This document shows, piece after piece, positions 12,268-12,495 of a stretch of 64,000 bases of DNA. Origin of the DNA: an uncultured Vicinamibacteraceae bacterium (GTDB lineage Bacteria; Acidobacteriota; Vicinamibacteria; Vicinamibacterales; UBA8438); assembly GCA_964636705.1 (NCBI GenBank), contig CAZWUJ010000007.1, positions 22,264 to 86,263 on the forward strand. Direction: 5' to 3'. A program made the translations under genes and the position numbers. The notes under the pieces are model-generated. The model was not told where the DNA came from, did no database searches, and saw only the letters and a list, made by a program, of their open reading frames with translations. The stretch's first letter is position 1. Each line of letters begins with the position of its first letter.

Positions 12268-12283
12268 CTGTTCCCTCTACAGC

Positions 12284-12315
12284 AAAAAAGCCATCACCCG
12301 CTGTCGGATGATGGC
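12284..12315 (-). terminator. Intrinsic terminator (attenuator) 16 nt upstream of the ilvD start
   Basis: The minus-strand RNA reads GCCAUCAUCC-GACAGC-GGGUGAUGGC followed by UUUUUU. The stem is 10 bp with one G-U pair. Confidence 0.8.
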
Positions 12316-12348
12316 CTCTCCAGGTCGCGGTGGGGTTGGATCAGGACA

Positions 12349-12426
12349 TCATCCCGTGGCGGCCGGCGCAATCGCGCCGGCCAAGCGAACGATGACGACG
12401 ACGAGACGTTCCCACCCGGTAATCAT
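12349..12426 (-). CDS. ilv leader peptide (25 aa) MITGWERLVVVIVRLAGAIAPAATG
   Basis: Short ORF between the predicted promoter and the terminator. It has six consecutive Leu/Val/Ile codons (CUC GUC GUC GUC AUC GUU). Confidence 0.7.
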   Translation of the reverse strand: MITGWERLVVVIVRLAGAIAPAATG

Positions 12427-12464
12427 GTCTGCTAGCCGGCGAGAGTAACCCTGCCGGACAGTGC

Positions 12465-12495
12465 ATTCTACCCTTCCGCGACGCCGGAGCGTCAA
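12465..12495 (-). promoter_or_regulatory. Sigma70-like promoter of the ilv leader/operon
   Basis: Minus strand TTGACG (12495-12490), 19 nt spacer, TAGAAT (12470-12465). It lies about 40 nt upstream of the leader ATG. Confidence 0.5.

Follow-up and report, generated by a model that had tools for sequence, protein, structure and literature searches.

A short leader upstream of the ilvD-ilvB-ilvN-ilvC genes was analyzed in a 64-kb stretch of DNA (hereafter, the window) from a member of the Vicinamibacterales, phylum Acidobacteriota. On the basis of the sequence, the expression of these genes is very probably controlled by a ribosome-mediated (leader-peptide) transcription attenuator. The support for this attenuator came from its sequence elements, their conservation, the covariation of the helices, the codon enrichment specific to the leader frame, and the placement of the leader stop codon. 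Few soil bacteria are more abundant than the Acidobacteriota, yet the gene regulation of this phylum is, to our knowledge, almost unexplored. The leader offers a concrete, testable regulatory element for branched-chain amino acid (BCAA) biosynthesis in this phylum, and it would extend classic ribosome-mediated attenuation to a further deep lineage.

Leader and predicted switch elements upstream of ilvD

All the elements of the window are read on the minus strand. The first regulated gene is ilvD (10600..12267), which encodes dihydroxy-acid dehydratase (NCBIfam NF002068, 829 bits; TIGR00110, 704 bits). Upstream of it, a leader open reading frame (ORF) of 25 codons plus UGA, MITGWERLVVVIVRLAGAIAPAATG, occupied the positions 12349..12426, and the ATG at 12426 was the sole in-frame ATG of this frame downstream of the promoter. 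The initial annotation had described a 25-codon leader with six consecutive Leu/Val/Ile codons, and these were found at L8 V9 V10 V11 I12 V13 (CUC GUC GUC GUC AUC GUU; 12388..12405). The leader stop UGA (12351-12349) sits within region 2, GGAUGAUG (12347..12354), a segment that was almost invariant in the 50 loci analyzed below. The putative promoter that had been read ahead of the leader was located as well, with the -35 box TTGACG at 12490..12495, a 19-nt spacer, and the -10 box TAGAAT at 12465..12470, 38 nt upstream of the leader ATG. Transcription presumably starts at about 12458.

Region 1, CGUCGUCAUCGU (12389..12400), paired with region 2 and its flanking bases in the minimum free energy (MFE) folds, and its partner in the per-sequence fold of the window was ACGGGAUGAUG. 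The pairing of CGUCAUC with GAUGAUG, noticed at the outset, was correct, with 7 bp including one G.U, and was present in the MFE fold. The top of the 1:2 structure is formed by the inner hairpin GGCCGGCGC-GAUU-GCGCCGGCC (12361..12382; -20.8 kcal/mol), which showed the perfect 9-bp stem and the GAUU loop previously assigned to it and is likely the pause hairpin. Region 3, the terminator 5' arm GGCCAUCAUCCG (12305..12316), was recognized as the alternative partner of region 2 from the sequence, folds, and alignments; the proposed GGAUGAUG/CAUCAUCC pairing holds with 8 Watson-Crick bp. In the fold, the spacer (12317..12346) adds CCU/AGG and UCCA/UGGA pairs to the window antiterminator. The terminator loop ACAG (12301-12304) is followed by region 4, the terminator 3' arm CGGGUGAUGGC (12290..12300; sequence, folds, and alignment), and by the U6 tract of the intrinsic terminator (12284..12289), which lies 16 nt before the ilvD ATG. 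The terminator of the initial annotation was therefore retained in its hairpin (12316-12290), its U6 tract, and its distance to ilvD, but the stem was slightly longer than described and the loop was the 4-nt ACAG. The core stem measures 11 bp.

These elements would operate as follows. The sigma-70-type promoter would start the leader transcript, and the nascent RNA would first form the long 1:2 hairpin, made of the Val/Ile codons paired with GGAUGAUG and topped by the 9-bp GC hairpin. This structure probably pauses the polymerase until a ribosome begins the leader. With an ample supply of charged tRNA-Val and tRNA-Ile (and tRNA-Leu), the ribosome should reach the UGA and cover region 2; region 3 (CAUCAUCC) would then pair with region 4, and transcription should stop at the terminator and its U6 tract just before ilvD. 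When these charged tRNAs run short, the ribosome would be stalled on L8-V13 and would hold region 1, the 2:3 helix could form once region 3 is transcribed, and the polymerase would read into ilvD-ilvBNC. If the leader is not translated, 1:2 and 3:4 should both form, and transcription would terminate.

Conservation, covariation, and folding states

With the ilvD protein, 80 loci were retrieved from one-genome-per-species contigs. The closest ilvD loci (83-94% identity) were those of Vicinamibacterales, and the loci at 70-78% identity belonged to other Acidobacteriota and to Binatia, Chloroflexota, Latescibacterota, and deltaproteobacterial bins. A covariance model (R1) built from 15 Vicinamibacterales sequences had a single match in the 64-kb window. 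At E < 1e-5, it matched the element ahead of ilvD and in the same orientation as this gene in 47 sources. These and three weaker matches made up the 50 elements that were analyzed, with ilvD 70-94% identical. All 50 sources were labelled as Acidobacteriota lineages. No locus labelled Binatia, Chloroflexota, Latescibacterota, Deltaproteobacteria, or Syntrophobacteraceae passed E < 1e-5, and several Acidobacteriota ilvD loci were without the element.

The 50 elements shared one layout, and the test that the initial annotation had set for its reading, conservation of the mini-ORF and of the alternative pairings in relatives, was thereby passed. A mini-ORF with a Val/Ile/Leu run ends in ...G-UGA, with the UGA inside GGAUGAUG; 20-40 nt later comes GGCCAUCAUCC-loop-GGRUGAUGGCC, and then the T-run, which most relatives carry after the terminator hairpin. 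The string GGCC-UCAUC was invariant in a 38-sequence alignment. The spacer between regions 2 and 3 was variable in length and not conserved in sequence.

The leader ORFs of the relatives were located from the box that can pair with the terminator arm, which served as the anchor; in some relatives, an upstream in-frame "ATG" is the end of TAGAAT and not the leader start. An ATG-started mini-ORF was present in 50/50 elements, and its stop lay inside region 2 in most of them and within approximately 13 nt of it in all. The leader peptides had 17-46 residues, and their N-terminal sequences were widely different and not conserved. A Val/Ile/Leu run of at least three residues occurred in all but three of the 50 leaders (such as LVVVIV, VIVIV, VVVV, VVVVV, and VLILLVL, with VVVTVTV in one clade). 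The run was written in different codons in the relatives and ended 10-16 codons ahead of the stop in most leaders. The fraction of Ile, Leu, and Val (ILV) was 0.33 in the leader frame; the two remaining frames had 0.13 and 0.09, the opposite strand 0.05, and the IlvD protein 0.23. The commonest leader residue was Val (17%). Since locus L056 reads GGGAUGAUG in another frame (..NGMM-UAG), the box is conserved as RNA and not as peptide.

The terminator and the antiterminator were evaluated on a structure-blind MAFFT alignment of the 50 elements (48 distinct sequences) from region 2 to the T-tract. The terminator was nearly invariant, with 94.6% of the cells paired across the 48 distinct sequences and the variation mostly taken up by G.U. 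Each of the eight pairs at the core of the antiterminator GGAUGAUG/CAUCAUCC was kept in 41-48 of the 48 sequences. Compensatory double changes occurred at 4 pairs, in 15 cells compared with 3.6 +/- 1.6 in the shuffles (0/500 reached this value), and the slid controls collapsed. The rare variants were region 2 GAAUGAUG with region 3 CAUCAUUC in L045/L040; GAGUGACGGC / GCCGUCACUC / GGGCGACGGC for regions 2/3/4 in L038; CGGGUGAU / AUCACCCG in L046; and the shifted register CUGCGGAUG / CAUCCGCAG in L057/59/61. If 2:3 and 3:4 are mutually exclusive helices of one switch, three-way compensation in rare variants is what should be seen.

For the inner hairpin, both-side changes were found at 8/9 pairs in the model-fitted alignment (A4), and 94.8% of the cells were paired. 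The whole-structure covariation score in the same alignment was 0.298, compared with 0.156 in the shuffles and 0.02-0.07 in the slid controls. RNAalifold recovered only the terminator as a consensus from the first MAFFT alignment, since the inner hairpins of different clades did not line up in it. In the Terriglobales-type loci, the 1:2 pairing was that of UCAUUCUGCUGG with CCAGCGGAUGA in the per-sequence folds.

The fold of the 193-nt leader (12268-12460), which the initial annotation had put forward as a check, gave an MFE of -89.3 kcal/mol (z = -3.33; 0/200 shuffles as good). It contained the terminator and the long hairpin of the Val/Ile codons with the stop-codon box. In the window, the energies were -33.2 kcal/mol for the 1:2 structure, -18.7 kcal/mol for the terminator core (-24.2 kcal/mol with the A/U extension), and -18.2 kcal/mol for the antiterminator fold (12354-12306). 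The ribosome states were then simulated by constrained folds of 48 elements. In the no-ribosome state, the terminator formed in 94% and region 2 was paired upstream in 92%. When the footprint was placed on the ILV run and the transcript ended before region 4, the 2:3 pairing formed in 90%. When the footprint was placed on the stop codon, the terminator formed in 100% and the 2:3 pairing in 0%, a result that is partly given by construction. The stalling and termination logic predicted from the sequence was matched by the constrained folding in about 90% of the loci.

If a short ORF and an ordinary hairpin, serving as a terminator or insulator between divergent genes, had come together here by chance, a high-GC genome abundant in Val codons and stable hairpins would be a favourable setting for it. 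The leader frame is also the tail of a mechanical 105-aa ORF, and a consensus promoter/terminator scan was empty at the leader. However, the full architecture was kept, with covariation, in 50 loci, and the combination was unique in the window. Among the 455 short ATG-ORFs of the window (10-45 aa, six frames), an ILV run of at least 5 occurred in 2, and only the leader joined such a run to a downstream hairpin and T-run. Moreover, the upstream gene is divergent, and the hairpin therefore terminates no upstream gene. The 105-aa ORF (12349-12666), which holds the leader frame, was rejected as a real gene, since it had no Pfam family and spans the conserved promoter. As far as sequence analysis can refute it, the chance explanation is already refuted by the conservation and the covariation, and we regard it as hardly credible. 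The string GGCCATCATCC with at most 1 mismatch had 5 matches in the window against 1.9 expected; 5/100 shuffles equalled this number, and the other matches lay inside genes.

Promoter, operon, and ilvD initiation

The promoter TTGAC(G/T/C)-N19-TAGAAT was kept in the close relatives L001, L002, L004-L008, L010, and L017, where 28-38 nt separate the -10 box from the leader ATG. The closest relative, L003, had the same promoter boxes with the spacer counted as 20 nt. The promoter of the next clade was TTGAG(A/C)-N18-TAGAAT, and that of the Terriglobales-type loci was TTGACA-N17-GAT(T/G)GT. The consensus scan, in which the promoter spacer ranged over 16-18 nt, reported neither a promoter nor a terminator for the leader of the window. 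The promoter was missed because its 19-nt spacer falls outside this range, and the terminator was probably missed because the stem extension through GAGAG/CUUUUU uses up the T-run. The leader terminator did turn up in separate hairpin/T-run scans and in the folds, and the empty consensus scan is treated as a limitation of the scanner rules and not as evidence of absence.

A conserved AT-rich box, TTATGAAAnnGTAAnnATTATAAAC, abuts the -35 hexamer in L002, L004-L008, L017, L019, L029, L038, L046, L056, and L064, whose genomes have 60-68% GC. It was missing from the window (12496-12530), L001, and L003. It might serve as an UP element or bind a regulator. At the 5' end of the leader transcript, the MFE and centroid folds predicted a hairpin (CCGGC...GCCGG; 12436..12457), and the relatives carried comparable GC hairpins at this place as judged by eye; these hairpins might have some function.

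The gene order ilvD-ilvB-ilvN-ilvC given in the initial annotation was borne out, with all the NCBIfam matches above the curated cut-offs: ilvB at 8813-10534 (TIGR00118), ilvN at 8216-8794 (NF008864), and ilvC at 7134-8147 (NF004017), all on the minus strand. The gaps between the four genes were 65, 18, and 68 nt, and the genes are presumed to form an operon. On the same strand, a DUF1499 protein gene (6341-7096) starts 37 nt after ilvC and is possibly the last gene of the operon; a tRNA gene (6238-6311, minus strand) comes after it. On the other side, a divergent 61-aa ORF (MFKLVTTVRGG...; 12569-12754, plus strand) starts approximately 75 nt upstream of the leader -35 box, and the next ORF beyond it has 248 aa (12803-13549, minus strand). 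Neither ORF had any Pfam or NCBIfam family.

In one Vicinamibacterales/Acidobacteriota clade (L038, L040, L045, L055, L057, L059, L061, L062, and L064), a prephenate dehydratase gene (PF00800 + ACT; e.g., L045:3117-3980) lies between the attenuator and ilvD. The leaders of this clade were Val/Thr-rich, with Phe just ahead of the run. In L010 (3662-4000), the element lies approximately 200 nt upstream of ilvD and is followed by two apparent degenerate repeats of the terminator 3' arm and the first ilvD codons (...GGGTGACGGCCTTCTTGCCATGAGC...), which would be a local tandem duplication.

The leader might also be translated and act mainly on ilvD translation or mRNA stability, by coupling, reinitiation, or Rho-dependent polarity, and not through the intrinsic terminator. 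Leader genes in Acidobacteria are statistically close to structural genes, which was interpreted as reinitiation (PMC4833913) and speaks for such a role. In the L002/L004-L008 clade, the chosen ilvD start lies only 7-10 nt after the T-tract, so that terminator events and ilvD initiation may be linked there. In the window, however, 81 nt separate the leader stop from the ilvD ATG (12267), and ilvD has its own Shine-Dalgarno-like GAGGG (12273..12277), 5 nt upstream of this ATG. Furthermore, the hairpin and the U-tract are conserved as a canonical intrinsic terminator, and the conserved alternative pairing uses the terminator arm, not the ilvD ribosome-binding site. An effect mainly on translation or stability is very unlikely in our estimate, and attenuation at the intrinsic terminator is the preferred explanation.

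The switch before other operons and in comparison with known systems

Metagenome contigs were scanned with the exact switch GGATGATG-N15-45-GGCCATCATCC-N3-10-GGRTGATGGC, which gave at least 120 loci (L081-L200). The downstream genes were identified by blastx searches of a small panel and confirmed with Pfam, and the composition was taken over the last 30 leader residues. Among the matches listed, the first downstream gene was ilvD in at least 38 loci (leader Val 0.18), prephenate dehydratase followed by ilvD in at least 18 (Val 0.24), ilvB in at least 6 (Val, Ile, and Leu each 0.11-0.13), a LysR-type regulator in at least 17 (Leu 0.33, with LLL runs), a HAD hydrolase in at least 13 (a W..PPG-type peptide with no obvious cognate enrichment), aspartate kinase in at least 5 (Thr 0.16, Ile 0.15), homoserine dehydrogenase in at least 3 (Thr 0.20, e.g., ..ISITTITATT..), and a class-IV (IlvE-type) aminotransferase in at least 2 (Leu, Thr, and Ile). 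Loci such as L114, L125, L132, L162, and L172 exemplify the switch before other genes. In these matches, the leader codons mostly tracked the downstream pathway (Val/Ile, Thr, Thr/Ile, or Leu). The Thr-rich leaders before homoserine dehydrogenase, the Thr/Ile-rich leaders before aspartate kinase, and the Val-rich leaders before ilvD are as a codon-sensing device predicts and speak for the attenuator. In the ilvD-linked metagenome loci, IlvD was 55-85% identical to that of the window among the matches listed; the switch is known there from contigs without an assigned taxonomy.

At the LysR loci (L162, L183, L133, and about 14 more among the matches listed), the leader, a Leu-rich peptide of 47 aa (..SILALVLGVLLLSLGLLLGSTLAAG) with the same switch, lay 21 nt before the gene. 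Further along this operon are an AMP-binding enzyme and a tannase-type (tannase/feruloyl) esterase. A small membrane peptide is an equally plausible reading of this Leu-rich leader. In L099, the N-terminal part of the leader of a second cassette equals an internal LysR segment, which suggests recombination. The HAD leaders (L118, L123, L140, L156, L172, and L096) had no cognate-codon run and shared the motif W-x(2-5)-PPG-(S/A/P)-(F/S)-G-stop, as in MRIAKADGWVDLAPPGSFG and MWLDPPGSSG. In the HAD operon, genes for a biotin carboxylase and a biotin carrier come next. These W..PPG peptides may be arrest peptides rather than codon sensors.

Because one conserved switch occurs with different sensor peptides, the element of the window appears to be a member of a modular family. 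With modest confidence, we lean towards a so far undescribed, phylum-wide modular attenuator in Acidobacteriota, in which an almost invariant three-strand switch, GGAUGAUG (with the embedded UGA) / CCAUCAUCC / GGRUGAUGG plus the U-tract, would serve as the shared expression platform and be combined with swapped sensor peptides. The sensors would be Val/Ile peptides for ilvD/ilvB, Thr peptides for homoserine dehydrogenase, Thr/Ile peptides for aspartate kinase, and Leu/Ile/Thr peptides for the ilvE-type genes. With the same reserve, the Leu-rich peptides before the LysR operon and the W..PPG peptides before the HAD/biotin-carboxylase operon would be further sensors. The extreme conservation of the switch beyond pairing might reflect, for example, a UGA/RF2 termination requirement or a trans-acting factor. 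The shared cassette was an unexpected extra. One switch with varied leader peptides is a natural experiment on the duplication and re-targeting of attenuators; the covariance model and a 29-base signature retrieve the at least 120 further metagenome instances, and short ORFs and 5' leaders could be annotated better in the genomes of Acidobacteriota.

The terminator/antiterminator switch might also be real and yet be set by a protein, a small RNA, a tRNA, or a metabolite acting on the box, with the mini-ORF being incidental. The three switch segments are almost invariant across Acidobacteriota classes and operon types, beyond the needs of strict pairing, which speaks for such a factor; nevertheless, three-way pairing and the embedded stop codon alone can explain the slow evolution of the box. 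The missing Shine-Dalgarno sequence before the leader and the cassette leaders without obvious cognate enrichment (the W..PPG type before HAD) also favour an incidental ORF. However, an ATG-ORF accompanied every one of the 50 elements, always with its stop in or beside region 2, the ILV enrichment was specific to the leader frame, and the composition of the leader shifted with the downstream pathway while the switch stayed constant. Moreover, no conserved unpaired sequence or extra structure for a ligand pocket was seen, and Rfam gave no T-box or riboswitch. We therefore hold a switch operated without the ribosome to be distinctly unlikely, and the leader-peptide attenuator is retained.

Several observations weigh against this attenuator. 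No recognizable Shine-Dalgarno sequence was found ahead of the leader ATG in the window (gccggctagcagacATG; gccggctagcagacAUG) or in most relatives. Since the leader is without such a sequence, though ilvD has GAGGG, efficient leader translation is an assumption, and this is the main weakness of the attenuator model. In L055, L057, L059, L061, L066, L071, and L078, only 11-14 nt lie between the end of the predicted -10 box and the leader ATG, which suggests near-leaderless initiation in those clades; a near-leaderless mRNA would fit the general absence of Shine-Dalgarno sequences before the leader ORFs. The 19-nt promoter spacer exceeds the usual range of 16-18 nt. With a stalled ribosome on the full-length RNA, the MFE structure was still the terminator in 92% of the loci, and without a ribosome the 2:3 helix also formed in 65% of the transcripts truncated before region 4. 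Therefore, the control would have to be kinetic, and thermodynamic folding is no proof of it. An equilibrium switch is not claimed, since the full-length folding of the stalled state disfavours the antiterminator. The control of the E. coli trp attenuator is likewise kinetic. The covariation figures of the inner hairpin lean towards the structure because the alignment was fitted to it, and, since the 1:2 register varies between clades, a single covariation count is impossible. Finally, the LysR-type and HAD cassette operons fit no simple cognate-amino-acid or biosynthetic logic.

A search of the window against Rfam 15 (4227 models) at the gathering threshold gave only two tRNAs, and a search of 12150-12700 at E <= 10 gave nothing relevant, only meaningless sub-threshold matches (Rubella_3, sR47, and similar). 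Seven divergent relatives gave only one tRNA. Membership of any Rfam 15 family, including T-box and riboswitch, was rejected, since no model reached the threshold. A literature search that left the multi-phylum survey of Lopatovskaya et al. (2010) outside its scope turned up neither a description of an acidobacterial ilv leader nor the sequence of the box. Both searches agree with the remark in the initial annotation that ilv leaders are undescribed for this lineage. The mechanism would be a classic one, and the family is apparently undescribed and, judged from the alignments, conserved across Acidobacteriota.

Proteobacteria have long been known to use leader-peptide attenuators (ilvGMEDA, ilvBN, trp, and others), with the trp operon as the mechanistic model. 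Vitreschak et al. (2004; cited in PMC10272879) are said to have surveyed attenuators comparatively. Like E. coli ilvGMEDA (IlvL) and ilvBN (IvbL), the element of the window has a short leader ORF with consecutive Val/Ile/Leu codons. It further resembles E. coli ilv/trp in the regions 1-4, with 1:2/3:4 exclusive of 2:3, in the intrinsic terminator just before the first gene, in the leader stop placed for the masking of region 2 by a terminating ribosome, and in an antiterminator that is weaker than or equal to the terminator, which points to kinetic control. In contrast to the E. coli ilv leaders, it belongs to a different phylum, shows no sequence similarity to them, and has no Rfam leader match. 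Unlike in E. coli, ilvD is the first gene of the window operon, ahead of ilvBNC, the antiterminator strand itself contains the stop codon, and the leader has no clear Shine-Dalgarno sequence. Furthermore, the switch sequence of the window is common to attenuators of other operons, whereas we know of no E. coli attenuators that share a switch sequence between operons.

Outside Proteobacteria, leader-peptide attenuation is also established in Actinobacteria (PMC1262725, PMC11857589), and motifs of BCAA-rich upstream ORFs have been proposed ahead of ilvB in Corynebacterium (ilvB-II), in ilvB-OMG, and in Leptospira (PMC10272879). As in the acetolactate-synthase operons with the Corynebacterium ilvBNC, ilvB-OMG, and Leptospira leaders, attenuation that depends on an upstream ORF is predicted here outside Proteobacteria (tested in Corynebacterium) (PMC10272879, PMC11857589). 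The peptides of ilvB-II, ilvB-OMG, and Leptospira are likewise variable in length and sequence and rich in BCAA, often also Thr, codons, which recalls our Val/Thr clade. The present element differs from these motifs in its first gene, ilvD, in its lineage, Acidobacteriota, and in the lack of an Rfam match above threshold.

For the wider cassette only, an analogy can be drawn with T-box leaders, in which one conserved terminator/antiterminator module likewise stands before many amino-acid-related operons and the specificity element varies. In a T-box, the specifier codon and the T-box sequence recognize the uncharged tRNA itself, and translation is not required. Unlike in T-boxes, no T-box structure is present here, as judged from the negative Rfam result, and the specificity would lie in translated codons.

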